DNA of 32,000 nucleotides from Promethearchaeota archaeon. Its GTDB lineage: Archaea; Asgardarchaeota; Lokiarchaeia; Sigyniarchaeales; Promethearchaeaceae. Positions 2,382-19,550 of the stretch are shown one piece after another. Position 1 is the first letter of the stretch. Every line of letters begins with the position of its first letter. The translations under genes were made by a program, and so were the position numbers. The notes under the pieces were generated by a model. It searched no databases. It worked only from the letters and a program-made list of their open reading frames with translations, and was not told the DNA's origin. The DNA lies in NCBI GenBank assembly GCA_016933055.1, contig JAFGBS010000004.1:180001-212000 (forward strand). Direction: 5' to 3'.

Positions 2382-2446
2382 TAAAATCAATATAAATTAT
2401 AAAGACGAACTTAATTTAAACTATGAACTAAGGGTAAATAGTCAAG

Positions 2447-3004
2447 ATGAAGAAGTATCAGATATTGATCCTTTCCCTAATCATTACTTTAGTAGTCTCC
2501 GTACTTGGATTATTTATTTTTCCCATATTTTTCATTGATAATTTTCAAATCCGGGATACAATTCCAATCATTGCTTTGGTTGGTCCATATATTATATTTG
2601 GTTATTCCTATTGGGCTCAGAATATTGCTAGTAAACGACGTTTAAAGAAAAACGTTCAGTGGTTCTTTTCTAATTTCCAAACGTTCACATCAACTCCCCT
2701 TGACACTCCCATACCAGAACCAAAATTTCTCTCGATAACTCACTTTTTCATTATATATGAAAAAGAATTCGGAAGATATCTGGATTTTAGGATCATTAGT
2801 ACTAAACATTCACAATTGCAAGAAATTTTCTTACTTAATGAACGATTTTGGATCAAATATTCAATGCAAGAAGGATTATCGATTCAATATTCAGATGATA
2901 ATTGTAAGACTTATCAAAAGATTGAAAATCGGAAGAAAATGTATAACGAAATCATCCGTTTTTGCAAAACTCGCTTTGGTATTGTGTTAGAATGCCTACA
3001 GTAA
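2447..3004 (+). CDS. Hypothetical membrane protein (two N-terminal TM segments, soluble C-terminal domain)
   Basis: 185-aa ORF with hydrophobic stretches ILILSLIITLVVSVLGLFIFPIFFI and IPIIALVGPYIIFGYSYW. It fills the gap between gatE and elp3. Confidence 0.7.
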   Translation: MKKYQILILSLIITLVVSVLGLFIFPIFFIDNFQIRDTIPIIALVGPYIIFGYSYWAQNIASKRRLKKNVQWFFSNFQTFTSTPLDTPIPEPKFLSITHFFIIYEKEFGRYLDFRIISTKHSQLQEIFLLNERFWIKYSMQEGLSIQYSDDNCKTYQKIENRKKMYNEIIRFCKTRFGIVLECLQ

Positions 3005-4615
3005 TCTAGAAACATAAGCTCCATCACGCTGGTAACCCAATTTATAAAAATACTCTCGTACACCAACTCCACTAATAATAGCAAGCTTTTTACTTTCAAA
3101 CTCGTCTCGTGCAATTTCTTCCGCTTTCATCAATAATTTTTGACCATATCCTCGATGTTGAACTTGATTCAGGAAGGGTTTTTCCAATCGTGGAACAATC
3201 TCTCCCACTACTCGGATTTCCCGTATAATCATCGTATCATCCCGCAATTCTGATCGATGAACCTGTTCAGAGGGTTTTCTGAGACGTAAATAACCTAGAA
3301 TGGTATTATTTTGCTCATATGAAAGAAAAATTTCTAACCCTTCAGAAGCCTCGTAATCAACCCTTTCCAATTCAAATGTGTCATTATCTAAATGAGACTG
3401 TTTCACAAAACCTTGCTCTCTGCATCGAATACAACTACATTGTTGATTCAATTCTTTCAATCTGTTTTGAACTAACTGCCGAAGATTGCTTTTTTTTACT
3501 CCATCTTCAATAAGGTAAGCAGGAATATCCCTCTGGATCCGTTGGATCCGTACATACTTGGGAAGGTGGGATTTCATCTTTGCTATTAGATTTACGGTGG
3601 TTTCCAAGGAATAAGATTGATATTCTCCTTTTTTCCACATTTCATATAATTTTGTCCCCTTGACAACTAATGTGGGGTAAATTTTTAACATATCTGGTCG
3701 AAAATCTGGATTCCGGAATAGTTCCATGAAATCTTCAAAATCTTCCTTGGGAGTGGTCCCTGGTAAATTGGGCATGATATGAGTGTTGATTTTCAATCCA
3801 ACGTCTTTTGCATACCTAATCGCATGTTTACTATCTTGTATAGTATGACCTCTATTTAATTGTGCAAGAATCGTGGATCGTGTAGTTTGAATGCCTATTT
3901 CTACCCGAGTCCCTCCATAAGAAAGAATTTTATCAATATGAGGAGGAAAGCAATAATCTGGTCGGGTTTCGACAGTTAATCCTACAACACGCAATTGAGC
4001 TGTTTCAGCTCTTTTAAGCGACTCCTCTAATGATTGAGAAGTTATGGATGGTTCAGATTCATAAAAATGATTAATTGCATCATAGCATCCTTTAACGAAA
4101 TTTCGTTGATATGTCTCGGGTGCTGATAATAAGGTACCACCCATGAGAATCAGCTCTATTTTATCGATCTTATGTCCGATTGATTGTAAGTCGAGTAAAC
4201 GGTTTCTGGTCTGTAGATAGGGATCATATCCATATATAATGGAACGTATAGCTGCGGGTTCTTGCCCCGTGTAGGATTGAGCGGCTTTCTCACCAGGTTG
4301 CGAATCACTTCCAGGACAGTACAAACATTTCCCGGGACATTCGATAGGTTTTGTCATTACTGCGACAACAGTCACTCCGGATATTGTACGGGTCGATCGC
4401 CGTCGTAAGATCGGTAAAATAATCTCTAATTCCTCTTCCGAAGCATATTGTAAGATTTCTGAATTTTTCATAGTGCGAGTAAGTGAGTATTTTTTCAGTA
4501 TTTTGTTTTTTAATTCAGTTATTTTTCCTTTAGGATAATACGGTCGCGCAATCAATTCGGTGATAATTTCTCTGCATACACATTCAAATTGAGCATCTTC
4601 TTGTTCATCATTCAT
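2996..4615 (-). CDS. elp3: Elongator subunit Elp3 (radical SAM + GNAT tRNA U34 acetyltransferase)
   Basis: RTISGVTVVAVMTKP, CPGKCLYC cluster motif, SYTGQEPA, ETRPDY, IRCRE and QHRGYGQKL (acetyl-CoA motif). ATG at 4615 overlaps the pyrK stop; the longer track start would sit inside pyrK. Confidence 0.96.
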   Translation of the reverse strand: MNDEQEDAQFECVCREIITELIARPYYPKGKITELKNKILKKYSLTRTMKNSEILQYASEEELEIILPILRRRSTRTISGVTVVAVMTKPIECPGKCLYCPGSDSQPGEKAAQSYTGQEPAAIRSIIYGYDPYLQTRNRLLDLQSIGHKIDKIELILMGGTLLSAPETYQRNFVKGCYDAINHFYESEPSITSQSLEESLKRAETAQLRVVGLTVETRPDYCFPPHIDKILSYGGTRVEIGIQTTRSTILAQLNRGHTIQDSKHAIRYAKDVGLKINTHIMPNLPGTTPKEDFEDFMELFRNPDFRPDMLKIYPTLVVKGTKLYEMWKKGEYQSYSLETTVNLIAKMKSHLPKYVRIQRIQRDIPAYLIEDGVKKSNLRQLVQNRLKELNQQCSCIRCREQGFVKQSHLDNDTFELERVDYEASEGLEIFLSYEQNNTILGYLRLRKPSEQVHRSELRDDTMIIREIRVVGEIVPRLEKPFLNQVQHRGYGQKLLMKAEEIARDEFESKKLAIISGVGVREYFYKLGYQRDGAYVSRLL

Positions 4616-5480
4616 AATGGGAATCAATCCTGATTTTTTCTCCGGTTTCGTCTCGATGAAACCTTCCGAAATCATCAAGTTCATTTAGTATCGCAGAAGT
4701 TAGGACAGGTCCATTCTGACATATTTTAATTCCTAACGGATCAACTATGCACAAGCCACATAATCCAAAACCACATCGCATATATCGTTCAAGAGAGGCT
4801 TCTAATTCAATGTTGTTCGAATTACAAAATAATAAGATTTTTTTTAGCATTATTTCGGGACCACATGCATATATCGTTATTTTTTGTGCGCCAGATCGTT
4901 CTTTTATCCAGGGCAGTATTTCTTTAAGTAGCTCTGTTACAAAACCTTTGTTTTCATAACTACCATCATCAGTACAAACAAACAATTGAGACTTAGGGCA
5001 ATTTTTCTCTAATTCGGGTAAATATAACAGTTCTTTCTTTGTTCGTGCCCCGACTATAACAGAATAATGATGGGTCATTTTCTTTTGGACAAGATCGATA
5101 AGAAGTTTCACAGACGCCATTCCAATTCCTCCTCCTACAATTACACTATAACCCTCCCTTACCTGATATCCATTCCCATAAGGACCTCGAATGCCAATAA
5201 TGTCTCCGATTTCAAGATTATGAAGGCTATGAGTTGCTTCACCCACATCTTTTACTGTAAAGCCGATATCTCCATTCTCCAATGCATACGATACTGCCAT
5301 TGGTACCTCATCAATGCCCGGAATCCAGACCATGATGAACTGACCAGGTTTTATAATAGGTTTCTTTCCATCGATAACAAAATTTACAAAAATCGTGATA
5401 CTGTCAGGTGTCTCGCGAGTGATTGATTTAATGGGGGTAGAAAATGGTTTATCAGTATGCGCAGTTTTTTTAAGACTCAT
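4608..5480 (-). CDS. pyrK: Dihydroorotate dehydrogenase electron-transfer subunit
   Basis: PGQFIMVW, GIRGPYGNG, VGGGIG and the 2Fe-2S motif MRCGFGLCGLC...ICQNGPV. It lies directly downstream of pyrD. Confidence 0.95.
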   Translation of the reverse strand: MSLKKTAHTDKPFSTPIKSITRETPDSITIFVNFVIDGKKPIIKPGQFIMVWIPGIDEVPMAVSYALENGDIGFTVKDVGEATHSLHNLEIGDIIGIRGPYGNGYQVREGYSVIVGGGIGMASVKLLIDLVQKKMTHHYSVIVGARTKKELLYLPELEKNCPKSQLFVCTDDGSYENKGFVTELLKEILPWIKERSGAQKITIYACGPEIMLKKILLFCNSNNIELEASLERYMRCGFGLCGLCIVDPLGIKICQNGPVLTSAILNELDDFGRFHRDETGEKIRIDSHYE

Positions 5481-5482
5481 GA

Positions 5483-6394
5483 TTATCCCTCGTTTTCATG
5501 TGTATGAGCTAAACCTGTTAATTCCGAAATTGTATTATATTCATGAGTTTCCATATATCTGAACAAATTATCATGAATTTTCGTGATGATATCATATCCA
5601 TAATATAAACATGACCCTAATTGTACAGCGCTCGCCCCTGCAAAGAAGTATTCAATAACATCCTCATATGCGAAAATTCCACCACACCCAATAATAGGAA
5701 TAGAGACCGATTTGAAAAGAGTATATACATGTTTTATCCCAATGGGTTTTATGGCTTTCCCGGATAATCCCCCAATTCCATGAGATAATATGGGGCGTTT
5801 AGTATGGATATCTATAGCTAAGGCACTGACTGTATTTATTGCCACCAGAGCGTCTGCTCCTGCTTTTTCAGCAGATTGTCCTATTTTAGTAATATCAGTC
5901 ACATTTGGAGTTAATTTTACAAATAATGGGCAAGAGATTCTTTTTCTAACTGTGTTGACATATTTATAAGTTAAATTAGGATCAACTCCAATTGTTGAAA
6001 CATCATCATGAGGGCATGAAATATTCATCTCAATTGCATCCGCACCTGCTTGTTCTGCTAAATAGGCAACATTGGCAAATTCTTGAGGACTTCTTCCAAA
6101 AACACTGACGATTACAACTAATCTCTCTTTAGTTTTGATTTCGGATATTTCATGCTCGAATGCACTAATCCCAGGATTTGCAAGACCAACGGCATTTAAA
6201 AAAGTATCATTATTCAAACCAATAATTGAGGGATTTTTATACCCGTTTGTTTTTATGGGTCCAATAGATTTTGTTGTCACCCCTCCCATCCCATAATCAG
6301 CGAGGATATGCATCGTTGAGGGGGACACTCCAAGAATTCCCGACGCTAAGATTAACGGACTTTTAAACCGCAGTCCAGCAATAGACATTTCCAA
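5483..6394 (-). CDS. pyrD: Dihydroorotate dehydrogenase family 1B catalytic subunit
   Basis: TTKSIG, NAVGLANPG, EMNISCPH, VKLTPN, INT, GGLSG and IIGCGGI. The start may be TTG 6394, ATG 6388 or ATT 6412 (see findings). Confidence 0.96.
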   Translation of the reverse strand: MEMSIAGLRFKSPLILASGILGVSPSTMHILADYGMGGVTTKSIGPIKTNGYKNPSIIGLNNDTFLNAVGLANPGISAFEHEISEIKTKERLVVIVSVFGRSPQEFANVAYLAEQAGADAIEMNISCPHDDVSTIGVDPNLTYKYVNTVRKRISCPLFVKLTPNVTDITKIGQSAEKAGADALVAINTVSALAIDIHTKRPILSHGIGGLSGKAIKPIGIKHVYTLFKSVSIPIIGCGGIFAYEDVIEYFFAGASAVQLGSCLYYGYDIITKIHDNLFRYMETHEYNTISELTGLAHTHENEG

Positions 6395-6492
6395 TGGATT
6401 ATCCTTTGAAATAATGGTACACCATCAAGAGGGTTTTTTATGAATAGGATATTTATGTTTATTTAATAGGATTTTTATGGATCTAGAAAAAG

Positions 6493-7782
6493 ATGATCGC
6501 TTATTTACTTGAGACTCCTGTAGGCATGTTAATAACAGACCAAAATGGACTTATTCAGAATTATTTTTTAACTACTGCATTACTCGATGAACAGCTATTA
6601 TTGGTATTACATTATGATGAAAGTGTTTATCAAATTCCCGCATTTGTACAATTTATCAATCAAATTAATGTTAGTAAGTACAATCTTGTCACTGAAACTA
6701 AAGATATGGCAAATTTATTGGAATCTAAGTATGAAGGAACAATCAAAATTGCTCCGTTTGATAGAAAATTCCAAGATTTACGAATCAACCTATCTAAGAT
6801 CTTAGCAAATATCAATATTCCCTCCTCAGTAGAGGAACTCACAATCATATCGCGAAAAAATGCAAAACTCTTTTCTAGAGACCGTATCAGGGAAAGTGGT
6901 CAAAGTTCAGACGTACACATTATAAATGCAGTAGGAGTCTTAGAGAATACCACGAAATTCATAAATTCATACGCTATTCAACTTCGTGAATGGTATGGCA
7001 GTCATTTTCCCGAGTTAACAGATAAATTAGTAAATGATATTGAACTATACGCAAAAATCGTTAATCTTTACCAGAAAAGAGATACCATAGAAGCATTAAA
7101 TTTGGTAAATGATTTACACATAAAAGAAGAATACGCTAAAGAGATAGAATATCAAGCCGAACATTCAATGGGTGGTGATTTGACGGAATCCCAACTAGAT
7201 GCGATTCGTATTTTCAGTAAAACCATTTTAAATTTGATTGACTTTCAAAAGCAGCTTGAAAATTCAGTAAACACTATTTTGCAAGAATTAACTCCTAATT
7301 TATATACACTAATTGGAGCTCAGTTGACGGGGAAATTGATCACTCATGCAGGGAGTTTAGAACACCTAGCAAAAATCCCCTCTTCTACGATTCAAGTGTT
7401 GGGTGCAGAAAAAGCCCTTTTTCGAGCCTTAAGAAAGAAAACCGACTCCCCTAAACATGGAATTATTTATACATGGCCTCCTATCCGTTCTGCAAAATAT
7501 TGGCAACGAGGAAAAATTTCCCGATTACTTTCAGGAAAAATTAGTATATGTGCAAAAGTAGATTTTTTTAATGGTGAATTTATCGGTAAAAAATTGTTAG
7601 ACGAATTGGAGGCAAAAATTAAGGACATTGAAGAAAGATTCCCTGAACCACCAAAACACGAAAGAAAGAAAAAACCTAAAGACTATAGTTCCAAGAAGAA
7701 AAAAGAAATTGCACGGAAAAAGGCATATCACATGTCTAAATCAAAATATAAATCGGGGATTAAAAAATCGGAGAGTAATTAA
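6493..7782 (+). CDS. nop5: C/D box sRNP scaffold Nop5 (Nop56/58)
   Basis: EWYGSHFPEL, QVLGAEKALFRAL, PKHGIIY and RGKISRLL, with a Lys-rich C-terminal tail. Upstream of fibrillarin. Confidence 0.96.
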   Translation: MIAYLLETPVGMLITDQNGLIQNYFLTTALLDEQLLLVLHYDESVYQIPAFVQFINQINVSKYNLVTETKDMANLLESKYEGTIKIAPFDRKFQDLRINLSKILANINIPSSVEELTIISRKNAKLFSRDRIRESGQSSDVHIINAVGVLENTTKFINSYAIQLREWYGSHFPELTDKLVNDIELYAKIVNLYQKRDTIEALNLVNDLHIKEEYAKEIEYQAEHSMGGDLTESQLDAIRIFSKTILNLIDFQKQLENSVNTILQELTPNLYTLIGAQLTGKLITHAGSLEHLAKIPSSTIQVLGAEKALFRALRKKTDSPKHGIIYTWPPIRSAKYWQRGKISRLLSGKISICAKVDFFNGEFIGKKLLDELEAKIKDIEERFPEPPKHERKKKPKDYSSKKKKEIARKKAYHMSKSKYKSGIKKSESN

Positions 7783-8476
7783 AACGAAAATCAAAGCTCA
7801 TCCTAAATTTGAGGGGATCTATAATACGGGGTATGGAGACCAATATCGTTTATACACGAAGAATAAAACCAAGGGTCATACCATCTATGGGGAAAAGATT
7901 GTAACTGAAAGGGATGATGAATACCGAGAATGGAATCCCTATCGCAGTAAATTAGCTGCTATGATCCTTAATAATGCACGCAATATTTACATTAATTACA
8001 CTTCTACTGTACTATATTTAGGGGCATCCTCAGGAACCACTGTGTCTCATATATCAGATATCACCACTAAAACCATATATGCAGTAGAATTCGCCCCTCG
8101 AAGTATGAGAGAACTCATTCAGAATTGTAATGATCGAAATAATGTAATCCCCATATTAGCAGATGCTAACTATCCTGAACAATATGCAAAATTCATTTTT
8201 GAAGAAATAGACGTAGTGTATGTTGATATAGCTCAACCAAATTTGACAGAGATAGCAATATTGAATTGCAAGAAATACCTCAAGGATGGTGGTCTCCTGA
8301 TATTAGCTATAAAGGCAAAAAGTATTGATGTGGCTCTTCCAATTCAAACGATCTTCAACGCTGAAATTCAGAAAATTGAAAACAAAGGATTTGAAATATT
8401 GGAAAAAATTAGTTTATCTCCCTACTCCCGAGATCATTTAATGATAATTGCCCGATTCTATCTCAAACCTACTTAG
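7778..8476 (+). CDS. flpA: Fibrillarin, rRNA/tRNA 2'-O-methyltransferase
   Basis: YGEK, YREWNPYRSKLAA, VLYLGASSGTTVSHISD and YVDIAQP. Start uncertain: ATT 7778 is proposed; the alternatives are TTG 7628 or 7709 inside nop5. Confidence 0.95.
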   Translation: MKTKIKAHPKFEGIYNTGYGDQYRLYTKNKTKGHTIYGEKIVTERDDEYREWNPYRSKLAAMILNNARNIYINYTSTVLYLGASSGTTVSHISDITTKTIYAVEFAPRSMRELIQNCNDRNNVIPILADANYPEQYAKFIFEEIDVVYVDIAQPNLTEIAILNCKKYLKDGGLLILAIKAKSIDVALPIQTIFNAEIQKIENKGFEILEKISLSPYSRDHLMIIARFYLKPT

Positions 8477-9156
8477 AAATATCCATCTAATTTTTTTTGA
8501 TATACTAATTCATTCATCAAATTTGCACATGTTTGCCATGAAGTTCTCGCAATTTCTGGGGGTTTTCGATTAATTTTAATGTAATTCCGCAAAAAAGCAA
8601 TAGTTTTTTGATCAGAACTATATCCGGATCCTATTTCTCCGTATTTTTTATATCTCGTGCTGCTTGCGATGATGGAACGATCTCTGTGCACTTTAGCAAT
8701 AATCGATGCAGCCCCAACTATCTTGTATTTTTCGTCAGCTTTATAACATGCTAGCACTTTTGGTAAAAAATTAAGTTCATCCTTAACCTTCATTGATATT
8801 TTTTTTCTGAAATTTTCTAAATCTCTACCCAAGGCATCAATGTAAACGACATCAGGTTGTAACTTGATAATTAAATTTGAAATAGAATCTAGTTCCAATT
8901 GATTTAGATTAACATGTTTTCGAGAGTTTGCATCAATGATTTCATTACTAATTTGATCTACTAAATAAGCTGTACAGTTTTGCAGAATGTAGTCATATAG
9001 TTCTTCCCGTTTTCTAGGACTAAGTTTTTTTGAATCATTAATATCACTTTTTTCTAACACGGGTAGATAATTATCACTGAATACTACCCCTCCGATGAAC
9101 AAATCTCCCAATACCGGTCCTCTACCAGCTTCATCTATACCCATTATGGTTTTCAT
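8473..9156 (-). CDS. rnhB: Ribonuclease HII with C-terminal PIP box
   Basis: GIDEAGRGPV, DSKKL, KADEKY, AASIIAKV and GSGY. C-terminal QKKLDGYF is a PCNA-interacting motif. ATG at 9156 preferred over GTG at 9165. Confidence 0.96.
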   Translation of the reverse strand: MKTIMGIDEAGRGPVLGDLFIGGVVFSDNYLPVLEKSDINDSKKLSPRKREELYDYILQNCTAYLVDQISNEIIDANSRKHVNLNQLELDSISNLIIKLQPDVVYIDALGRDLENFRKKISMKVKDELNFLPKVLACYKADEKYKIVGAASIIAKVHRDRSIIASSTRYKKYGEIGSGYSSDQKTIAFLRNYIKINRKPPEIARTSWQTCANLMNELVYQKKLDGYF

Positions 9157-9164
9157 AGGAATCA

Positions 9165-10166
9165 CTATCGAATGGAGAGAATTTTAACAATTTCCTTAGC
9201 TTCTTTTGCAGTTTTTAATTTTTTGCTCTCTATAGGAATAATTCCCACTTTTTTACACTCTTTGACATCTTGGGGTTCTTCAACAATCGCACGAACCGGT
9301 CCCATCTTATTTCTAATCTTAACCATTTGTGCGATATTGTATAACCGATTTAAATCCTCTTCTTGTATGTTAGAAAAAACTCCAGATATAATTTGTAGAT
9401 TGTTTTCATATCCCGGTATCAAAAAAAATACATCGAATGGACTATTACTCGTCCAAAATTGAAAAATTCCCAGTTCCGATAGAATTTCTGAAATCTCTTC
9501 TGCGATTTCTATATGTTGCGATTGAGCTGATGGGCGATTTTGGATAATCTGTTTAGTTTTTTTTGGCAAATCGAAAATATGAATAGGTTTTTTGATTTCC
9601 GTTGATAAAATGTCTTCTAACAACTCTACATGATGCAACTGGCTATAAACCGATTTCTTCCGTTCGTATTCCGCAATGGTTTTTGTGGAAATTCGCATTT
9701 TTTCCGAAAGAGTCTTCCGAGAAAACGACTGTTCCTCCCGTAGTTGTTTAAGTTCCTCACCATCAATTTTATATAAATATCCCCCCCGTTTAGCAATTCG
9801 TAATGGATGTATGTTATGTTTGATAATTTGAATTAGTGTATACAAATTGATAGCAATAATGTGACCATCCAAGCGGAAATAGACAGTATTATCTTCTAAT
9901 TCATTCCGACGATTGTAAATTCCTATTAAAATAGGAGTAGCTTTCAAAAAATACCCTAATAAAAGCATTTCAATCATCATTTCCTTCTCTGTAGTGTCTA
10001 TGTTTTCCACAATTTTCGTTATTAAGGAGATGGAATGATCTTGAGAAGTTGCAATCACATCACAGCAATGTGTTTTGGGAGTGTTCACTATTCTTGTTGT
10101 ATTAAACGCTTCATCCCGAAGTGTTTTTTCCACTTCATCCACAACATGTGCTGTTTGTCCTGTCAA
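9165..10166 (-). CDS. Archaeal HTH-type transcriptional regulator (COG1395-like, central XRE HTH)
   Basis: LKQLREEQSFSRKTLSEKMRISTKTIAEYER HTH flanked by CCDVIA and PFDVF alpha/beta domains. TTG start preceded by GGGTG; typical neighbour of flpA/rnhB. Confidence 0.85.
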   Translation of the reverse strand: MTGQTAHVVDEVEKTLRDEAFNTTRIVNTPKTHCCDVIATSQDHSISLITKIVENIDTTEKEMMIEMLLLGYFLKATPILIGIYNRRNELEDNTVYFRLDGHIIAINLYTLIQIIKHNIHPLRIAKRGGYLYKIDGEELKQLREEQSFSRKTLSEKMRISTKTIAEYERKKSVYSQLHHVELLEDILSTEIKKPIHIFDLPKKTKQIIQNRPSAQSQHIEIAEEISEILSELGIFQFWTSNSPFDVFFLIPGYENNLQIISGVFSNIQEEDLNRLYNIAQMVKIRNKMGPVRAIVEEPQDVKECKKVGIIPIESKKLKTAKEAKEIVKILSIR

Positions 10167-10245
10167 AAAAGCACCCTATAAATAATATATAAAAAAAAGA
10201 AAGATACAATCCCTATAAACAATTCTAACAAGATGATCTTAATTC

Positions 10246-10860
10246 TCAATCTAATTCAAGGAAACCCTTATCATCTAAAATCTCGTCCAGATCACGACCA
10301 CGTTTCGGTTTTGTGCTCGTTTTCCCGTCAGAATACTGCTGATCTTCCACATCCTCATAGATATCGTCATCTAACCCATCTTCCAGCTCTTTTAGATCTA
10401 ATTTTTGATAAATATCTCTAGAGAGCCGAAAATATTCTTCGGATTGAGCTTTCCACTTTTGAGCGTTTTTCAGATCCTCGTCAAGATGATTTTCCTCATA
10501 TTCCTTAATAGCTTCATTAGAATTATCCATACAAATATCTGAAAGAATTTCATATACTAAAGCCAGCTCGCTAAAATTTTGTTTATCTTCCAACCTCTGT
10601 GCGCGTTTAATAAGTCGATTGTATTCTTGCCCTTTGAAATAGATGTCGATAAAATCTCCAAAAGCATCTACTGGTTCAGTTAATTGGGATGCTTCAACCT
10701 CCTGTTCTAATCCACAAAACCCACAAATAACTACAGCCTTGGATTTATCTTTTTCAATTCTGGTCTTAATCGTTTTATGACCGCAGTTGGGGCAATTGAA
10801 TACCCGAGGTAGTCGTCGTACTGGTTTATATACTACTTTCTTCCTTTTCCGTCTTCCCAT
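10246..10860 (-). CDS. elf1: Transcription elongation factor Elf1 with a ~125-aa C-terminal extension
   Basis: MGRRKRKK, FNCPNCGH...ICGFCGL and EPVDAFGDFID match the Elf1 zinc ribbon. A helical segment and an acidic tail follow. Confidence 0.9.
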   Translation of the reverse strand: MGRRKRKKVVYKPVRRLPRVFNCPNCGHKTIKTRIEKDKSKAVVICGFCGLEQEVEASQLTEPVDAFGDFIDIYFKGQEYNRLIKRAQRLEDKQNFSELALVYEILSDICMDNSNEAIKEYEENHLDEDLKNAQKWKAQSEEYFRLSRDIYQKLDLKELEDGLDDDIYEDVEDQQYSDGKTSTKPKRGRDLDEILDDKGFLELD

Positions 10861-11090
10861 ATAGTTCACTACTTAATTTATATCTCTTTAGAAAAAGGTA
10901 AATTTCTATAAAGCAAAATCCTCTATGCCAAATAAGCTTTACCTTTTATCCATTTTCACTCATTACCGAAAAATTTAAGTCCAATGCTTCTATTTGTTTA
11001 TAAATTAACTTCTGAGCATAAATTCTCGCTATTGCTCGTTCTTTCGAAATTAGTGTTAACCAACAGAATCAACAAAAGGAAAAATTGTAA

Positions 11091-12200
11091 ATGAAAGAAC
11101 ATAGTGGTATAGACTTGGAAATAGATAGATCAATGCTTGAATCAGTATTTGATGATCCTGTAATTCGATATATCCTTCTTCATATGTTTTTGGTAAGAAT
11201 GCACATATTTCAAAATTTAGAAGATGAAAGTATTGTTGAAGGATTTGAACGATTAGACCGAATCGGCAATCCTACTAGAAAGGATTTAGAACAATGCCTC
11301 CCTGAAGACGTAATAGAGGAATTATTTGTATATAATTTGGTTACAAACATTAGCAGTTATCTAGTGTATCAACAAAAACCATCAGATTTCCCAGTGAAAT
11401 TGGTCTCGAATGAAGTCTATATCGAAACTGATAAGATCATGTTTTCTGCGGAAGGGCTACTTCAGATTATCAAATCCAATTTTCCTATTGTCACATTAAA
11501 AAAGATTAATGATGGACTTAAAAAATTACGTTCTATCCCTTGTGAGAGTAGCAATACAATGCATTCACTAGTCCATAAGTACGATGAGGATTACGCTCTA
11601 GATGATGAATTGTACGACATCTTATTTCTCTTAGGTAATCCGTATTTATCTCTAAGATTAGAGCGGTTCGTGGTAGAAATCGAATTAAAAGCATCGGAAT
11701 TAGAAAATTCAATTGATAATTACCTAAAAATTTTCCATTCTGAGCTTTTAAGTTCAAAACATATTCAGAAAATAAAAAAGGCAGCTCATGACCCTGAAAT
11801 CTCAGATATTTTGGATTATATAATCACCAAATCAAGGAATTTACCCACAAAATTCAACCCCTCAGAGAAATCTGAAACCTACGTGGAATGGAAAATGATA
11901 CTATCGCAATTGTTGAGGATTAAATCAAGATCTTTTGAGATAAATTCGCAGATTGAAGAAATTAGGAACTTTTATTCGGGTAAAAATCAAAAAATGTCCT
12001 ATTTGTCATTTATTGAGCAATTAACTGAAAATGAAGAAAAAACTTCGACCTTCATTCGTGATTCTCTACTGGAGATCCGGGAAAAATTAAAGGAATCCAA
12101 TGAATTTATTCTCAGTCATAGCGAAAAGGAAATCAAGTTATTAAACTTGGATTTAGAACGAGAAGTTATAGAATTGGAAGAAGAGGATAAAGAGAATTGA
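11091..12200 (+). CDS. Hypothetical protein, putative winged-helix N-half and helical/coiled-coil C-half
   Basis: 369-aa ORF, first gene of the operon. Its stop overlaps the next start (TTGA). Domain call is inference only. Confidence 0.75.
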   Translation: MKEHSGIDLEIDRSMLESVFDDPVIRYILLHMFLVRMHIFQNLEDESIVEGFERLDRIGNPTRKDLEQCLPEDVIEELFVYNLVTNISSYLVYQQKPSDFPVKLVSNEVYIETDKIMFSAEGLLQIIKSNFPIVTLKKINDGLKKLRSIPCESSNTMHSLVHKYDEDYALDDELYDILFLLGNPYLSLRLERFVVEIELKASELENSIDNYLKIFHSELLSSKHIQKIKKAAHDPEISDILDYIITKSRNLPTKFNPSEKSETYVEWKMILSQLLRIKSRSFEINSQIEEIRNFYSGKNQKMSYLSFIEQLTENEEKTSTFIRDSLLEIREKLKESNEFILSHSEKEIKLLNLDLEREVIELEEEDKEN

Positions 12201-13126
12201 AGTGTCCAAATTGTAATACTGAATTACGACTATTAGTTCCGGGAATATTTGAATGTCCCAATTGTAAAACTATCATAAAGGAAAAAATAGAAGAAGAGGA
12301 GAAGCCAGAGGAACTTTCTATCACTTCTGGGGATTGGTTCATGAGAAATACCAAACTCAATAGTAAATATGAGATTTGCGAACAAGGTATAATTGTGCAT
12401 CAAACACCGAAGGACATGATTGCGATATTAATCTGTCATAGTCCGGATTTTCCGAATAGTAACTATATTCGATTATCTTGGTTTAGGGAAAAAGCACGGA
12501 TTCATTGGGGCATGATCAAAATTCGAGAAAAATCCGTCCTAAAAAATACAATTCAGGCATTGGAACGCATTGATAAAAATTTTGATAGCGATTTCGAGTG
12601 GGTAAACAAGGAAGAAGATGCCATGGATAACAATTTGAGCGATGAAGAGTTATTAATCTATACATTTACGGATAGAAAATGCCCCCAATGCGGAAAAACT
12701 TTGAAAAAACGGAAGAAATTCTATGAATGTGAAAATCAGATGTGTGGGGAATTATTTGTAATAGTTAATGGACGACCACTTTATAACTCCCCTTCAGAGA
12801 AACTACCATTGCGTTTCGTAAAGAATTTACCTATCAACTTTTATTTGCCAGTTGCAGGGATTACAACTAAAATGTTTGTTGGGGATTGGAAAGCCATTGC
12901 TGTAATATACAAGGAGTCCAATCCGGATCGAAAATGGTTGCGTTTTTATTGGTGGGTGAGAGATCTTCAACCATATTTAGAAAGTCAATTAACCATCGAT
13001 ATTGAAGCCAATAAATCCCTTTCATGGTCATCCCGAAAGGGAGTAAAATCTCCAAATATATATGATAAACGAATTATCAGGCCATTTATCGCTGGATTAA
13101 AGAAAATTGAAACAGTTTGGGAGTAA
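12197..13126 (+). CDS. Hypothetical protein with two zinc-ribbon + beta4-alpha repeats
   Basis: CPNC..CPNC and CPQC..CENQMC cysteine pairs, each followed by a similar domain (YIRLSWF...ALERI / WLRFYWW...GLKKI). Confidence 0.8.
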   Translation: MKCPNCNTELRLLVPGIFECPNCKTIIKEKIEEEEKPEELSITSGDWFMRNTKLNSKYEICEQGIIVHQTPKDMIAILICHSPDFPNSNYIRLSWFREKARIHWGMIKIREKSVLKNTIQALERIDKNFDSDFEWVNKEEDAMDNNLSDEELLIYTFTDRKCPQCGKTLKKRKKFYECENQMCGELFVIVNGRPLYNSPSEKLPLRFVKNLPINFYLPVAGITTKMFVGDWKAIAVIYKESNPDRKWLRFYWWVRDLQPYLESQLTIDIEANKSLSWSSRKGVKSPNIYDKRIIRPFIAGLKKIETVWE

Positions 13127-13128
13127 AT

Positions 13129-14250
13129 ATGGCAATTTCAGTGTGGAATGAAATTTTGGAAAAATTTCAAATTGGACTGACTGCATCCATAGAACACCTT
13201 AAAGAACGGGATATAGAAAATATTCCAGGTGCAAAGGAACGTCTGATAGAAAAATTTACTCAAATCCGGGATTATTTACCACGTAATAACGGGGAATTGC
13301 TTCTCTCAATGATAAACGATTCTATCCAAGCTCGTTTATTTCCAAACATAGAGGACATTGTACCAGCTTTCAATCAGATTCTTAATGCAAGGACTCCAGA
13401 GCAAGATTACATAATAAGTGAGCTTATTGACGGTTTTATTAGTTCCCAAGGGAAAACTCTATTTGGGGGAACTGATCGGAGGATAATTGATAACCTTGTG
13501 GAAGCTTTCAAAAAGAGAAGAGATTTTAAAATTGTTGATCACCAATTCTATGCGATGTTTGGTGATCCAAATAAACCTCGAAAATATGTACAAGAGAGGT
13601 TGGAAAAAATTGCGAAATTTCTGGGACTCCAAATGGAAATCCTTCATGTGGAACAAGATGTTCGGGATGGTAAACCCAAGGACTATAAGTTCTACTCATT
13701 TCCTGAAGAAATTACAACCATCCTCGAAGGAAAATATCTTCAAATTCAAGATAATGGTGAAAAAGTTATTACAGATGAATTTGATAAAATGGTGTTTATT
13801 AGTTATTTTTTAGCAACTCAATCCGTCAACCGCAAGAATTTAGATAAATATGCGGTAAATGGCATCTGTGCGATATTTGCTTTAATTTTATTATTAAGTT
13901 TCATGCCCAAATTAGAGGTAGATGAAACTAATCCCATTAATCGGGATGACCACTTCAATTCGCAAACAATGAGCATAATTCCTAAATCATGGTTAACCAA
14001 AGATATTTTGAGTGAATTAATGACACCTTTAGTTCAACTTATCGCATACCGAGTTGGGGGCATAAACTGGCTGGATAAAATTATCCTAACCGAAAAAAAT
14101 GTAAGTATCCATCTCCAAGCACAATTTTTATTAAAAGATGTCAATAAATGGGTGCTAGGAAATATGTGCAGAGTGGAAATTCCCATCTTTGTTGAAATAT
14201 CGAACATCTTCAGTGAGATTATCATTGGAACAGAGCGGGGTGAGGAATGA
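13129..14250 (+). CDS. Hypothetical protein, possibly with a tandem winged-helix (KITE/MAGE-like) core
   Basis: Long ORF; ATG at 13129 follows GGAG. Its stop overlaps the next ATG (ATGA). Fold call is speculative. Confidence 0.75.
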   Translation: MAISVWNEILEKFQIGLTASIEHLKERDIENIPGAKERLIEKFTQIRDYLPRNNGELLLSMINDSIQARLFPNIEDIVPAFNQILNARTPEQDYIISELIDGFISSQGKTLFGGTDRRIIDNLVEAFKKRRDFKIVDHQFYAMFGDPNKPRKYVQERLEKIAKFLGLQMEILHVEQDVRDGKPKDYKFYSFPEEITTILEGKYLQIQDNGEKVITDEFDKMVFISYFLATQSVNRKNLDKYAVNGICAIFALILLLSFMPKLEVDETNPINRDDHFNSQTMSIIPKSWLTKDILSELMTPLVQLIAYRVGGINWLDKIILTEKNVSIHLQAQFLLKDVNKWVLGNMCRVEIPIFVEISNIFSEIIIGTERGEE

Positions 14251-15494
14251 TGGTTCGTGAATCGTGGATGGAAATTTATCCTTATTATCAAAACTACATA
14301 CAAAATATGCTTCCATTATTCGAGCAGTCCTTAAAATTTGTACAAGATCTTCAAACTGAACAAATAAGTGAAAATACTTTTATAATGGAATATCTGGCAA
14401 AGGAAGAAAAAAGATCCGTGGGAAAAGTGAAAGCGATTTCGGAATTTAGTGCTTTATATCGTAGGGATATTTTTTCTCGAATATGGGATCGCATTGAAGA
14501 ACTGAAAGTTAGCACGGATTTAGAAGAAATTCGTGACTTAATTATTGATGATTTTGAAGAAGCTATCGAATTTTTGGATTTTTTGGGCTCTCTTACCACA
14601 CCTGATCAAACTCAATATGAATCCACTAACCTGTATCAAATTGTTAATTTCATTCAAGAGCAAATCTTTCCCAAAAGGACTTCCTTGCAAGAGGTATATG
14701 ATCATTTAATTGAGAAATCTTTACAATACTATGAGATACAAAGACATTTATTAATGCCTACCTCTTCTTATCGAGAAAAAGACGAAGGATTTGAGACTCC
14801 CGCCTTACATTCTAATCATTATAAACTAATCAACGAAATCACGTCTTTATTTAATTTGGATCCAAATTACTTGGAATCGCCAAAAGATCCAAATCTTGAA
14901 ATTCCCGTTATTCTAAAGGATGAAATTTTCCTCCCTTTTATTGATTCCATAGCTAGCAACGAATCAATTAATCTTAATCATATTTTGAAGAGGATGGAAT
15001 TACAATTAATCCATAATATCTTTATTGGACCAACCATGCAATTGATTCGTCTAGGAGAACCTCATAATTATTTTAGGAGGGAATCTAGCTCAGAGACTAA
15101 AGAGCGAATAATCCCTCAGCTTAGTAATGAAACCTTGGTGCTCATGTATCTAGCGAAAATTTCCTACAAACGAGGTTTTATATCAAAAGAATTGATAAAC
15201 TGGATTAGTTCAATAGTAGCCGTACTAGTGTATAATGGCACTTTATTCACCTTCATGTCGGAGGAAAATATATTTTATACAATTTTTACCGATCTAAAAA
15301 CTGAAGAAAAAATTCTTCCTTATATGATGAAACTTATTTGTTTTGACAAATATTTGGGGATAGATCGGACAAAAATTCGAGATTCCGTCCAATATCGAAA
15401 AGAAATCTTTGGTGCGATTGGTTCTCAAATCATTCACATGAAAAAACTGATCGAGGAAGTGTCAAACTATATTTTTAGTATACTCGAAGAATAG
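14247..15494 (+). CDS. Hypothetical all-alpha protein
   Basis: 415-aa ORF with GGTGAGG upstream, coupled on both sides. No motif recognised. Confidence 0.75.
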   Translation: MMVRESWMEIYPYYQNYIQNMLPLFEQSLKFVQDLQTEQISENTFIMEYLAKEEKRSVGKVKAISEFSALYRRDIFSRIWDRIEELKVSTDLEEIRDLIIDDFEEAIEFLDFLGSLTTPDQTQYESTNLYQIVNFIQEQIFPKRTSLQEVYDHLIEKSLQYYEIQRHLLMPTSSYREKDEGFETPALHSNHYKLINEITSLFNLDPNYLESPKDPNLEIPVILKDEIFLPFIDSIASNESINLNHILKRMELQLIHNIFIGPTMQLIRLGEPHNYFRRESSSETKERIIPQLSNETLVLMYLAKISYKRGFISKELINWISSIVAVLVYNGTLFTFMSEENIFYTIFTDLKTEEKILPYMMKLICFDKYLGIDRTKIRDSVQYRKEIFGAIGSQIIHMKKLIEEVSNYIFSILEE

Positions 15495-15503
15495 GTGATA
15501 ATA

Positions 15504-16562
15504 ATGGTCTTTACAGAAGCAGAAATACGTAAAAGAATGCAGAAATATGGAACGGTATATTTTCCTAAAGATATTCGTGACAAAGACGAAGATCTAATTG
15601 GAATTGAGCGAAATAAAGAAATTCTGGAGGACTTCTTCAGTTCTTTAGAGAAATACAAGGAATACGCAATTAAATTACAAGAAGTCAGAATCACTCCCTC
15701 CATTACCGTTCTTTTATATGGACCGCCTGGAACTGGAAAAACATCTTTAACTCGTGCACTTGCAAAAAAATATGACGTTCCCATGTGCATCGTAGATGCT
15801 GACAAATTAGTGTCCCCCTTATTGGGAGATACTCTAAAAAATATGCGAAACGTTTTTGAACTTGCAGCAGAAATAGCAAAAGAAAATCGAGTATTTTTAC
15901 TATTTTTTGATGAATTAGATGCAATCGCTTCCGAACGATCAAATGTCCATGAGGTAGGTGAAATTAAACGAGGAGTGATATCTTTTCTACAGATAATTGA
16001 TAGAATCGATTATGAAGGCATTCCATTAGCGATTTTTGGAGCAACTAATCATCAGAATCAGCTAGATTCCGCGGTATGGAGGAGATTTACTTATCACATT
16101 TGGTTTGGATTTCCTAATCTTAGTGTTAGAAAAGAAATCATCATAAAATTTCTGCATAGATTAGAAAAAGCTCCTATAGAAGTGGAATCATCAATATATC
16201 GTCGTTTAGAAAATGAAGAAAAACAATTACTCATAAAATTCGAAGAAATGAAGAAAAAATCCCGTAATTTAACACTATTGGATTTTGAGGACAAGCAAAA
16301 AAGTGAAACTGGACTATTAAGTATAACTCGGGGATATACTGGTGCTGACATAGAACGAGCTATTCGAGTTTCCTTGTTAAAAGCCATTCAAAAAGAAATT
16401 TTGGAATATCAAGATTTAATTTATGCTATGCAATTTGTTGGAGGAACTCGATCTCACGTAGAACAACAATCAAAATTATCAGGAGAAGGAACAGAGAATC
16501 CAAGTGCAAAAAAAATGACCAGTTCAACGGCTTCAACAAGCAAGAAACCTAGAGAAATATAA
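15504..16562 (+). CDS. Single-domain classical AAA+ ATPase
   Basis: Walker A GPPGTGKT (15720-15743), Walker B LLFFDELD, SRH ATNHQNQLDSAVWRRF and GYTGADIE. ATG 15504 follows AGGTGA; the track start is GTG 15495. Confidence 0.93.
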   Translation: MVFTEAEIRKRMQKYGTVYFPKDIRDKDEDLIGIERNKEILEDFFSSLEKYKEYAIKLQEVRITPSITVLLYGPPGTGKTSLTRALAKKYDVPMCIVDADKLVSPLLGDTLKNMRNVFELAAEIAKENRVFLLFFDELDAIASERSNVHEVGEIKRGVISFLQIIDRIDYEGIPLAIFGATNHQNQLDSAVWRRFTYHIWFGFPNLSVRKEIIIKFLHRLEKAPIEVESSIYRRLENEEKQLLIKFEEMKKKSRNLTLLDFEDKQKSETGLLSITRGYTGADIERAIRVSLLKAIQKEILEYQDLIYAMQFVGGTRSHVEQQSKLSGEGTENPSAKKMTSSTASTSKKPREI

Positions 16563-16573
16563 GGTTTCCCAAA

Positions 16574-17371
16574 ATGACACGACTACAATCTTTGCGAAAA
16601 ATACTTGCATTTTTGAATGCACAGAAAATTGATCTCTTGGTTTTATATGATCAAATTAAGCAATCTTTTACAATGATTCCAGAAGACTTTCTTACTAATA
16701 AAATTCAGTCCCATTTTTCAAGAGAATTTCAAAATATAGAAAATGTTCTTGTATCATGCGAAAATATTATTGAATTTTGGAATATGATTCATTATTTATC
16801 AGGCGGTTTGAGATTTCAAAATTTTCAGGAAAAAATCCAAACTAAGGATGGAACTTTACGGGTAAATCTACAAGCAGTAGGGTTCTCAATTCTGAGGTCC
16901 CATAAGTCAAAGTCATTCGGAAGTTATCAATCTCTCCAATCCTTATCTTGGGAACAATGGAGAGATATTTTATCCTTATTACAGTCAGACTCGTCTATTA
17001 AAATGTCTGCAAGAAGGTCTCGAGATATAGCTAAACATAAATATGAAACCGAAGTTACACAACATTTAAAAGCTATTTTAAAAGAGAATCCTGAACTCTC
17101 TGATGAAGATAAGCAGGAATTTTCTACCTTGTACCGGAGAACCAGAGTCTCTTTAGAAGAATTCCTCCAATCAAAATATAATACACTTCATAAGTCTTTA
17201 CCCATTTCAACTCGTTTGCCAAAATCCGTTGATGATGACTCTGAAAACAATTTTGATGGATATGCTACTTATTTAGAGGCAGATGAAAGGGAAATAGCAC
17301 GGATGAAAAGAACTGGGGAGTATTCAGTTGGAAAACGTGGGAAAAAGAGAAAAAGGAGCAATGCATCATGA
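16574..17371 (+). CDS. Hypothetical protein with a basic C-terminal tail
   Basis: 265-aa ORF ending GKRGKKRKRSNAS. Its stop overlaps the next ATG (ATGA). Confidence 0.72.
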   Translation: MTRLQSLRKILAFLNAQKIDLLVLYDQIKQSFTMIPEDFLTNKIQSHFSREFQNIENVLVSCENIIEFWNMIHYLSGGLRFQNFQEKIQTKDGTLRVNLQAVGFSILRSHKSKSFGSYQSLQSLSWEQWRDILSLLQSDSSIKMSARRSRDIAKHKYETEVTQHLKAILKENPELSDEDKQEFSTLYRRTRVSLEEFLQSKYNTLHKSLPISTRLPKSVDDDSENNFDGYATYLEADEREIARMKRTGEYSVGKRGKKRKRSNAS

Positions 17372-18987
17372 ATGTATCGACACCACCTCCATCCGTTGCG
17401 ATCTGGATTATCCAAGGGGAAAACTCCAAGAAAATCATCTCTCAATTTCCCTCCTCAGTCAATTGGATAAATTGGACAGACAAAAAAATTGTAAAGAACC
17501 ATGAAATATACGGTAAAAATTTCTTGAGTTTAATAAAAAATCTTACAGAACACCAAATCCTTAATAATCCCCTTCACTACGAAATGAATCATATCTTTGA
17601 AGGGATCCACCAAACCCAATCTATTATCCAAAAATTACCACTGTTTCTTGAACATCTACGGAATTATGATCTATTTTTTGAATTCATTAGAATCTATAAC
17701 AGAAGAATCGATTTAGAACAAGAATTACGTTGGGCAAAAGTATTAGAATCTAAATCCAAGGCATCTGTAGAAATGAAACGAATTTCTAAACTCAATGAAG
17801 AGATTACGGATTTAGAAAAAAGTAAGGCACGTATAGAACCCCGATATGAATTCTTAAAAAAAATTCTAGAAGAACACCAAACTACCTTGAACATGCTAAA
17901 AGAAGAAATTCAAAAAATCACTTCAATTTATATAACTAAGACAAGAAAGATTAACAAACTCAAGAGATTTATAGATAATGAAAAAACCAAGAGTGATATT
18001 TATAGGGACAAGATTGAGGAGTTAACTACAAAATTCTCAGTGGAAGAACAGGAAGATAATCAAGATTATAAACGCTTGTTAAATAAGCAAAAAACTGTAG
18101 ATTCTAATATTGAGAAGAAGAACAAAATTATTCAAGATCTTTCAAGAGAAATTCAAGCTAGTAAATCTTTATTGAAACAAAAAAAAGACGATCTTACTAA
18201 AATAAAACGAAAATATGAAAATTCTTATTCTAAATACACGGAAGTTAATCAATCCTACACGGACATTATAAAAAATCTAAAAGAAAAGAAAAAAGAAAGA
18301 GACATTATAACCCACCATCAAACAGAAGAGATTTCACCTTCGAATGGTAAAATAGCACCAAGTAATATCCGTTTTTCTTCCCTAATCGAGAATGATCTTA
18401 AAGAGAATTCGATCCAATTAATGAAATTCATAAATTTAGAGGAAACAACTCCTAAAAAGTACTATGATCAAGTCTTAGAAGATCTGAAGTATCCAACAAG
18501 CCATGTAAAAGATTTGACTATCCCAATAATTCCGATATCTGAAAATATACTTAAGGAAATCCATAATCTTTGGATAGCAATTGAAAAATCGCTAAATTCG
18601 TTACTGGCTTTCATAAAAGTGCAAATTATTCTATCCCAATTCCCAATTTATTTCGATGCCAAAGAAATTAATCCGAATTATGGAATTTCCTTTGACATTT
18701 TAAAAAATGATAAACCTATTGTCCTTGATAAATTGCCAACAGAAGAAAAATTATACTTTATGTGGTCATTTGAATTTGTCTTAAACGAATTAGCAGGCAT
18801 GAAAGTTCATCTTTACAGTGATGAAAACTACCAATTTAAACGAAGCAAAAAACTTCTCGAACGGATCATTCAACTTGTGCAAAAAGGAATAGTTACACAA
18901 CATAAGAGCATTAAAATTGTGATCCTTTTATCCAAACCAGTTCTGGAAGCTAAAAACCAAAAAGATATCGTTATCACCACTATTTAA
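17368..18987 (+). CDS. SMC/Rad50-like coiled-coil protein with a degenerate ABC head
   Basis: About 200 aa of K/E-rich heptad coil. The C-terminal GISFDIL..LDKLPTEEK..F..L...VHLYSDE..IVILLS parallels the SMC head C-lobe. Coiled coil seen directly; SMC relationship inferred. Confidence 0.65.
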   Translation: MNVSTPPPSVAIWIIQGENSKKIISQFPSSVNWINWTDKKIVKNHEIYGKNFLSLIKNLTEHQILNNPLHYEMNHIFEGIHQTQSIIQKLPLFLEHLRNYDLFFEFIRIYNRRIDLEQELRWAKVLESKSKASVEMKRISKLNEEITDLEKSKARIEPRYEFLKKILEEHQTTLNMLKEEIQKITSIYITKTRKINKLKRFIDNEKTKSDIYRDKIEELTTKFSVEEQEDNQDYKRLLNKQKTVDSNIEKKNKIIQDLSREIQASKSLLKQKKDDLTKIKRKYENSYSKYTEVNQSYTDIIKNLKEKKKERDIITHHQTEEISPSNGKIAPSNIRFSSLIENDLKENSIQLMKFINLEETTPKKYYDQVLEDLKYPTSHVKDLTIPIIPISENILKEIHNLWIAIEKSLNSLLAFIKVQIILSQFPIYFDAKEINPNYGISFDILKNDKPIVLDKLPTEEKLYFMWSFEFVLNELAGMKVHLYSDENYQFKRSKKLLERIIQLVQKGIVTQHKSIKIVILLSKPVLEAKNQKDIVITTI

Positions 18988-19037
18988 TATCAAAACCAAA
19001 AAAAAAACCAATAACAAACCTAAATAAGGACAACTAC

Positions 19038-19550
19038 ATGACAGAATCCCCTTTGGAAGAAAAAGAATCCCAAATAAAGCGAATTTGCAGGATTTTACTT
19101 GAAAGTCAAGAAAAAATCATAAAAGAGAAAGAACTTTTAAATCTTGTTCAAAACGATGAAGATCAATTTCAAGAGGTAATTAGTGAAGTTACGGTACGTT
19201 TTGAGAAAATCGGATACGAATTAATTCGTACGAATTATATGGAAGATATTTATTATCTTTTGGCAACTACTGGGATGGATAAAACTCTCACTCCTCAAAT
19301 GTATGGCATATTAGCGTTAATTTTTAGTTTCCAAAAAGAATTCAGTAGGGAATTGACTATGGAAGAAGCTAAAGATATATTCAAATCCTCTTGGGAAGAA
19401 GTGACATTTCTTATGAACCAGAATTATCTTCATGAGTATCTTCTTCAAAATCAGAAATATTTGATAATCACACCTATAGGTAAGGTTCTGTTCAAGGATG
19501 TCCTCTCCGACATCACACTGGATTTAATATTAGATAATTTGGGAATTTAA
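19038..19550 (+). CDS. Putative tandem winged-helix protein (KITE-like: ScpB/MksE/Nse1 type)
   Basis: 170 aa; RFEKIGYELIR...YYLL, then LTPQMYGILALIF...YL...YLIITPIGK, a WH-WH pattern. Lies downstream of the SMC-like gene. Confidence 0.6.
   Translation: MTESPLEEKESQIKRICRILLESQEKIIKEKELLNLVQNDEDQFQEVISEVTVRFEKIGYELIRTNYMEDIYYLLATTGMDKTLTPQMYGILALIFSFQKEFSRELTMEEAKDIFKSSWEEVTFLMNQNYLHEYLLQNQKYLIITPIGKVLFKDVLSDITLDLILDNLGI

Follow-up and report, generated by a model that had tools for sequence, protein, structure and literature searches.

A hinge-less SMC-like protein with a degenerate head, and the probable SMC-kleisin-kite-like module it serves, in one order of Promethearchaeota

We describe a gene, g7, in a 32,000-nucleotide window of a Promethearchaeota archaeon genome (assembly GCA_016933055.1, contig JAFGBS010000004.1, positions 180,001 to 212,000; coordinates below are positions in this window unless another contig is named). 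The gene lies on the plus strand at 17368..18987, and its stop-free open reading frame (ORF) translates into a 539-aa, hinge-less, SMC-like protein with a degenerate head. In our reading, g7 probably supplies the SMC-type subunit of a degenerate SMC-kleisin-kite-like module, a third SMC-type module that occurs in two families of one Promethearchaeota order and most likely descends from the archaeal SMC5/6-related complex. A first-pass annotation, made from the letters of the window, had proposed a pseudo-ATPase SMC scaffold with an inactivated ATP-binding cassette (ABC) head—a reading now supported by profile-level homology of the C-lobe, by an SMC-type fold in the model, and by motif loss across the whole family.

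To our knowledge, the characterised SMC-family proteins (SMC, Rad50, RecN, MukB, JetC, LmuB, and ClsN) all use ATP-driven head engagement. We found no account in the literature of an SMC member that is ATPase-dead and hinge-less across its family and kept under selection in a kleisin- or kite-type context, nor of an AAA+-containing operon of the g7 type. The module would be the third of SMC type for the Loki-type Asgard archaea, a group used for reconstructing the origins of the eukaryotic SMC complexes. A bolder proposal is that the SMC subunit of such a complex abandoned both its ABC motor and its hinge, and that a dedicated AAA+ ATPase, together with four lineage-specific partners, runs it instead. 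We hold this only tentatively; if true, the motor of an SMC-kleisin-kite machine would have been replaced in nature, within the prokaryotic lineage that stands nearest to eukaryotes, and the module could trade places in evolution with a cassette in which the SMC retains intact Walker motifs. If the complex is real, the role of an SMC arm without a motor, and the takeover of loading or release by an AAA+ ATPase, become questions.

Architecture, homology, and motif loss in g7

The fold of g7 is taken from an AlphaFold2 model built on an alignment of 46 family sequences, with a predicted local distance difference test (pLDDT) score of 85 and a predicted template modelling (pTM) score of 0.52; a model from a 4-sequence alignment reached a pLDDT of 58 and was not used. 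In the model, the N-terminal strand (residues 12-16) runs into the P-loop place, IIQGENSKK, which the family columns also mark (17401..17433), and short helices continue to residue 61. A helical rod then spans residues ~67-416, with ~150 residues in each of two antiparallel arms. The ascending coiled-coil helix (residues 67-222; 17566..18033), whose neck is also placed by the complex model described below, carries a conserved L116/E119 motif and an invariant N196. At the apex, a 9-residue loop (residues 223-231; 18034..18060), variable or deleted in the other family according to the alignment, stands where a hinge domain is absent. The descending arm (residues 232-391; 18061..18540), delimited by the single-chain and complex models, consists of a helix at 232-318, a low-confidence linker at 319-336, and broken helices at 337-391.

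The C-terminal ABC-type lobe (residues 392-539; 18541..18984), recognised with AlphaFold2, Foldseek, hhalign, and Atlas, starts with a coil-exit helix bearing N410, which is near-invariant in the family. Strands at 418-451, a helix at 458-475, a strand at 480-484, a helix at 494-511, and strands at 516-521 and 534-538 follow in that order. The model thus presents the SMC-superfamily trait of N- and C-terminal head pieces linked by a long antiparallel intramolecular coiled coil. Translation places every motif string quoted in the first-pass annotation where it had been given: IIQGENSKK at 14-22, IYGKNF at 47-52, YGISFDIL at 438-445, LPTEE at 456-460 (nt 18733-18747), VHLYSDE at 480-486 (nt 18805-18825), and IVILLS at 517-522. 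The C-terminal strings sit on the strand at 436-446, the start of the helix at 458-475, and the strands at 480-484 and 516-521, in keeping with the SMC C-lobe layout that had been claimed. The annotation had named failure of the C-terminal ~120 aa to model as an ABC-type head lobe as grounds for giving up the reading; the region is modelled as such a lobe, with a pLDDT of 86-94 over most of residues 400-520. The same annotation had described a coil of ~200 aa with neither a hinge nor a CxxC hook, and the two absences stand (g7 contains no cysteine at all), whereas the total length does not, each arm alone being ~150 residues.

Foldseek, suggested earlier as a check, matches the AlphaFold2 model to Rad50, SMC, MukB, and JetC, including head-only chains. 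Against the PDB, the ranking opens with Rad50 (7zr1_C, E 1.7e-10) and continues with MukB, JetC, the Pyrococcus Smc head with its coil, Smc5/6, and LmuB. The head-only chains—the Rad50 C-lobe 3qkr_B, 9a9j_B, the SMC head 5h68_A, and Rad50 4nch_B—are matched at E < 1e-3 with a probability of 1.00, and the template modelling (TM) scores by target are 0.41 for 3qkr_B and 0.46 for 9a9j_B. A shape search of the Atlas returned SMC_N, AAA_23, RecN, or SbcC_Walker_B for ten of the ten nearest clusters (TM 0.27-0.42), and the Atlas's own model of g7 gave the same SMC-type picture.

Profile alignment, likewise proposed as a check, carries the homology of the C-lobe. With hhalign, the family C-lobe aligns to 29 C-lobes of SMC5/6-related SMCs from the same order with Prob 72.7 and P 3.2e-5 over 82 columns. 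Controls made of reversed alignments, 30 column shuffles, and six unrelated alignments gave P >= 0.012, and a true-homologue control, Rad50 against the SMC5/6-related C-lobes, gave P 2.3e-6. The alignment runs from the coil-exit helix, where the two share L-E-x-x-I-N-x-x-F including N410, through the sheet; it sets L-T-T-P-E-K (L-x-x-x-E-K) on L-S-G-G-Q, in signature register.

The ATPase motifs are lost across the family. Walker A (GxxxxGK[ST]), the xSGG signature, and CxxC are each found in none of the 46 members; G17, which follows the first strand, persists in 40 of them. The annotation had seen only Walker A remnants at the N-terminus, and the lack of GK[ST] is borne out; the change goes beyond mutation, however, in that the N-lobe is largely missing. 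Only ~66 residues precede the coil in g7, whereas SMC5/6-related SMCs from this order have ~170-200 there, so most of the N-lobe is absent. At the signature place, a relic reads LPTEEK (residues 456-461; 18733..18750) when aligned to the LSGGQ/E of SMC5/6-related SMCs, and its pattern, L-[T/P/K]-[T/R/P]-[P/E]-E-K, is well kept (L456 in 45, E460 in 42, and K461 in 44 of 46). The Walker B place (VHLYSDE, residues 480-486; 18805..18825), located by the modelled strand and the family columns, has the consensus h-h-F-S-N-L; of the 46 members, 9 keep the Asp and 4 the Glu, and the g7 of the window reads LYSDE. The H-loop place (KIVILLSK, residues 516-523; 18913..18936), located in the same way, has the consensus S-N/K and a His in 2 of 46.

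The losses of Walker A, signature, and Walker B noted in the window copy thus extend through the 46-sequence family, and that copy is therefore not a pseudogene-like accident. The missing H-loop His was also rightly observed; as a sign of inactivation on its own it is weak, because the SMC5/6-related SMCs of these genomes, which have intact Walker motifs, read QFIMITPN or QFILVAPD there and also lack the His. Given the loss of the P-loop, the signature, and the acidic pair of Walker B, g7 would not be expected to bind or hydrolyse ATP in the ABC manner, or to undergo ATP-dependent head engagement.

The conserved operon and its swapped cassettes

The gene is the seventh of eight co-directional genes (g1 to g8, 11091-19550), and its ATG shares 4 nt with the stop of g6. 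The window is archaeal by its genes, which include GatE, Elp3, Nop56/58, Elf1, RNase HII, and an archaeal SAM synthetase, and Atlas clusters for the gene next to g7 bear the label Promethearchaeota. Among listed sequencing runs, the stretch occurs in the probable source metagenome alone, and no RNA run is listed with it. A word-indexed search found three relatives of g7 at 35-41% identity, and an exhaustive profile search added ~15 full-length relatives of 520-590 aa; a second word-indexed search, with a 19-sequence profile, returned only four close relatives already known, because coil words swamped the candidates. When 400 genomes of the phylum were scanned with a profile, two families of the window's order proved to have g7, as a single copy per genome (8 of 13 and 118 of 135 genomes); none was found in the remaining 252, which gave only coil matches to proteins of 700-1130 aa. 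The distribution of g3 is the same: 12 of 13, 119 of 135, and none elsewhere.

Five further genomes of the order, among them two closed ones (6.04 and 4.32 Mb), show g1-g5 and g8 in synteny, with Elf1 at one flank and Lsm, CobW, and a DNA methylase at the opposite flank. Both g6 and g7 are present there and diverge fast, with 13-18% identity where g3 keeps ~50%. The gene and its operon are under purifying conservation, and the operon is a lineage-specific core operon rather than an ORF artefact. The window genome also encodes a canonical SMC (1473 aa), an SMC5/6-related SMC (1128 aa), and a Rad50/SbcC-like protein, and an SMC5/6-related SMC was found in 61 of the 61 genomes of the order that were searched. 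With these housekeeping SMCs all present alongside, g7 is an extra module and not a decayed housekeeping copy.

Two genomes carry a different cassette in the same place. In G011 (closed, 4.36 Mb, same family) g7 is not detectable and only a divergent g3 is; a variant cassette on the minus strand (G011:C1:1133000-1152999, 2395-13137) consists of g1'-g3'-g4'-AAA'-SMC-like (1057 aa), and two further genes (322 and 313 aa) come after it. The cassette is inverted and replaces g3-g7; it adjoins galK, Lsm, and the methylase, and is bordered by a well-conserved g2 and by a g8 reduced to a C-terminal remnant. Its SMC-like protein has intact Walker A and B motifs (GKNGSGKS and DEFD, with an SSGQK signature), can be aligned to the SMC5/6-related SMC over its whole length (22% identity), and matches AAA_21, AAA_23, and LmuB models (LmuB 1e-17); the 313-aa last gene has a sub-threshold Nse4_C match (E 1.3e-3). 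A short contig of G013 (C66) encodes g2, g1', g3', g4', AAA', an SMC-like protein of 1071 aa that is 47% identical to the G011 copy, a 325-aa gene, and a frame truncated by the contig end. That a cassette with a Walker-bearing SMC has displaced g3-g7 in place is an argument for g7 as the one that plays the SMC part in the module. The system is testable: closed genomes within the family have either the degenerate operon or the Walker-keeping cassette.

The gene directly upstream of the motif-bearing SMC-like genes in the variant cassettes is a g5-type AAA+ gene. A paralogous cluster on the minus strand of G269 (G269:C11:13000-32999, 7226-13592) has a g5-like AAA+ gene (337 aa) overlapping an SMC-like gene (1018 aa), with three small genes, one of which has a Csa3-like match; G269 carries the standard operon as well. 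Taken over G011, G013, and G269, this type of AAA+ is repeatedly coupled to SMC-like genes.

Two side observations concern g7 itself. In G003 (C24, 13080-15116) the g7 slot is filled by a 678-aa protein that the family profile does not detect, and which shows a g7-like N-terminal strand pattern and a C-terminal helix-strand-helix-strand layout; the subunit therefore drifts fast. The same genome has a tandem duplicate of g1. In the sister family, the orthologues in the loci L014, L018, L023, L025, L029, and L037 (~1480-1500 in each locus) have an in-frame stop within 6-9 codons before the conserved N-terminal strand; between the two there is no ATG, GTG, or TTG, and ATA or ATT are the only codons on offer as starts. 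Read from sequence, this suggests a non-canonical start, or re-initiation after g6, in several of these genes.

Partner proteins and the predicted complex

The last gene of the operon is g8 (19038..19550, plus strand, as are all genes of the operon), which encodes a 170-aa tandem winged-helix protein with kite homology at the profile level. Its family aligns by hhalign to the ~175-aa second gene downstream of the SMC5/6-related SMC, which we take as the kite (Prob 63.7, P 6.7e-5, 109 columns). Searches of g8 against Pfam and the PDB gave nothing usable; MAGE, DUF4194, and MksE came up as Atlas leads (0.75-0.76) and were set aside as too weak to count.

The candidate kleisin-like partner is g6 (16574..17371), a helical protein that ends in a basic tail and measures 265 aa in the window and 329-352 aa in the other family. 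An Atlas search with g6 gave no usable match. The tail is strongly basic (KRGKKRKRS in the window), and the sister family adds a conserved Lys/Arg-rich C-terminal module of ~80 aa; their composition suggests that tail and module may bind nucleic acid or serve as a handle for the AAA+ ATPase. That ATPase, g5 (15495..16562), belongs by family scans to the classic AAA+ clade (PF00004) and lies nearest to IetA models. The remaining genes, g1-g4 (11091..15494), encode four conserved proteins of no known family that are co-inherited with g5-g8 and keep 32-55% identity across the order. They had no match in Pfam, NCBIfam, or PADLOC, nor, as profiles, in PDB sequences. The g2 protein contains a pair of Cys4 zinc ribbons with a similar domain after each, and is conserved even where the rest of the operon is swapped.

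A three-chain model of g7 and g8 with g6 as the partner gave interface scores (ipSAE) of 0.70, 0.68, and 0.70, against 0.48 for the best control. The mark applied is reached by 58 of 80 solved complexes and by 2 of 110 mismatched pairs; the runs share at least 35% of contacts, and the partner pLDDT is at least 57. The control in which g6 was kept and g7 replaced still reached 0.48, which is compatible with a separate contact between g6 and g8. In the model, g6 residues 3-76 lie along g7 residues 79-111 (ascending neck), 370-399 (descending arm into the C-lobe helix), and 423-436 (C-lobe sheet), and g6 residues 118-160 are placed on g8. The predicted geometry is like that of an SMC neck bound by the N-domain of a kleisin whose middle carries a kite; part of the pass may therefore be owed to resemblance with solved complexes. 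The model supports, and does not demonstrate, binding of g6 to g7.

A mechanism can be sketched on this basis. As the complex is modelled, g7 would act as a passive coiled-coil arm, with its head-proximal neck and C-lobe docking the N-terminal helices of g6, and the middle of g6 would hold the kite-like g8. The basic tail of g6 would be left free to bind nucleic acid, and the energy-dependent steps—loading, release, or remodelling—would come from the AAA+ ATPase g5 together with g1-g4. The role of such a module would presumably be directed at the chromosome or at DNA.

Alternative explanations and known SMC-type systems

Several results weigh against g7 as the SMC subunit of such a module. No sequence family recognises the protein: on whole g7, Pfam, NCBIfam, and PADLOC give coil-type matches well under their cut-offs only, the curated SMC models (PF02463 SMC_N, PF13476 AAA_23, and TIGR02168/9) match coil regions only, at 21-23 bits against cut-offs of 567-729, a whole-genome scan with PF02463 has no match at the g7 locus, and Pfam on 46 isolated C-lobes matches no ABC family. 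Outside the SMC5/6-related SMCs, the C-lobe profile alignment is not significant, with P 0.33 against Rad50 C-lobes (in the same register) and P 0.037 against the three cassette SMC C-lobes. The N-terminal part does not align significantly with SMC5/6-related N-lobes either (P 0.007 and 0.015); the two weak matches are co-linear, one setting the first strands of g7 on beta3 and the Gly after them on the first P-loop Gly (P 0.015), the other the neck motif L-x-x-E-L-x-W-A. For the partner, hhalign finds no similarity between g6 and the kleisin of the SMC5/6 operon (P 0.33), and the C-terminal 100 residues of g6 make no contacts in the complex model. Dimerisation and the entrapment of DNA would also be hard to account for in a hinge-less arm without ATP engagement.

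The lack of a recognised sequence family would also fit g7 as a generic coiled-coil protein, say a cytoskeletal element or one that serves the AAA+ ATPase as adaptor or substrate, with a C-terminal alpha/beta domain that is ABC-like by convergence. The TM-scores of the g7 matches, all below 0.5, agree with that explanation, although long rods flex and so lower these values; in VIA-align, generic helical rods such as the hairpins of chemoreceptors, the dynein stalk, and ESCRT-III rank level with SMC arms, but that comparison is dominated by the rod and uninformative on the head of g7. Convergence does not readily account for a C-lobe profile match that falls in signature register with clean controls, for Foldseek matches to head-only Rad50 and SMC chains at full probability, for a neighbour that is a kite homologue, or for a motif-bearing SMC in the same slot of the swapped cassette, and we consider it quite improbable. 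Among the sequence matches set aside, those of g7 to crescentin, SMC/Rad50 coil regions, DruC, and JetC (E 0.002 or weaker) are coiled-coil artefacts, and PDB sequences searched with phmmer and with the 46-sequence profile yielded nothing but unrelated coiled coils, such as ELKS, spike S2, and chemoreceptors.

The main rival is a conflict system, acting against viruses or plasmids, which would put the same parts to another use: an IetA-like AAA+ ATPase coupled to an SMC-like sensor or scaffold by a Lamassu- or Wadjet-like logic, and fixed in the lineage. The best scores of g5 against IetA models, the presence of LmuB and JetC among the Foldseek matches, the evolution of g6 and g7 far faster than that of their neighbours, the exchange of the whole cassette in G011 and G013, and the paralogous AAA-SMC cluster in G269 all fit such a system, and to that extent count against a chromosomal module. 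The operon, however, is near-universal, single-copy, and fixed between housekeeping genes (elf1, RNase HII, Lsm, and galK) in two families, a stable distribution unlike that of patchy, island-borne defence systems; Pfam, NCBIfam, and PADLOC find no nuclease or other effector domain in the eight proteins, and no PADLOC model covers the system. We judge a conflict role unlikely. That g7 might still be a nucleotide-dependent SMC-like ATPase, through non-canonical motifs or a composite site borrowed from a partner, is very improbable: the retention of G17 with Lys-rich residues after it, the almost invariant E-K of the signature relic, and the S-D-E kept at the Walker B place by the window protein's own clade speak for residual function, but the P-loop place has no GK[ST] in any member, ~100 or more residues of the N-lobe are gone, Walker B acidic residues are in the minority (Asp 9/46, Glu 4/46), and the Ser-Gly-Gly of the signature has become T-T-P or P-T-E.

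RecN and LmuB share with g7 a similar size (~550-630 aa), a short antiparallel coil, and the lack of a globular hinge; RecN clusters give the best Atlas TM for g7 (0.42), and LmuB chains are among its Foldseek matches, whereas no RecN or LmuB model matches g7. RecN is bacterial, and Lamassu carries an effector subunit, which the g7 operon lacks. Nor is g7 recognised as LmuB or JetC: the sole PADLOC match to either is to a JetC3 coil (E 0.0066), and no effector-like domain (LmuA or JetD) occurs in the operon. Rad50/SbcC provides the best Foldseek match and the C-lobe-only chains noted above, but g7 lacks its CxxC zinc hook and ATP motifs and the C-lobe profiles do not align significantly; the seven other genes of the operon have no match in Pfam or NCBIfam to an Mre11-type (metallophosphatase) or other nuclease family. 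The archaea-specific SMC-related proteins (ASRPs: ClsN and Sph1/2), described as bearing Walker A and B motifs and in most cases also a zinc hook (PMC9389158), resemble g7 in being archaeal, SMC-related, ~600 aa long, and folded back on their coil. As g7 has neither the Walker motifs nor the hook, and does not match NF045487 though the genome's true SMCs do, membership among them was rejected.

The probable closest relative is the SMC5/6-related SMC-kleisin-kite complex of TACK and Asgard archaea (bioRxiv 10.1101/2024.01.07.573240 and 10.1101/2021.05.15.444277). The two have in common the head-coil-head architecture, C-lobe and kite homology at the profile level, the absence of the H-loop His, and, by prediction, a small helical protein on the neck where a kleisin N-domain would lie. 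They differ in the size of the SMC (~1130-1190 aa versus 539 aa) and in gene order, which is SMC-kleisin-kite there and g6-SMC-kite here; g7 moreover is without a hinge, has lost the greater part of its N-lobe, and lacks the motifs of Walker A, LSGG, and Walker B. The g7 operon also adds the AAA+ ATPase and the four proteins of no known family, and co-exists with a genuine SMC5/6-related operon in the genome. In the window genome that operon lies on the minus strand (G000:C5:33000-46000, 5275-11130), with genes of 406, 1128 (the SMC), 237, and 178 aa; the 237- and 178-aa genes have no Pfam match, and the 178-aa family still aligns to g8.

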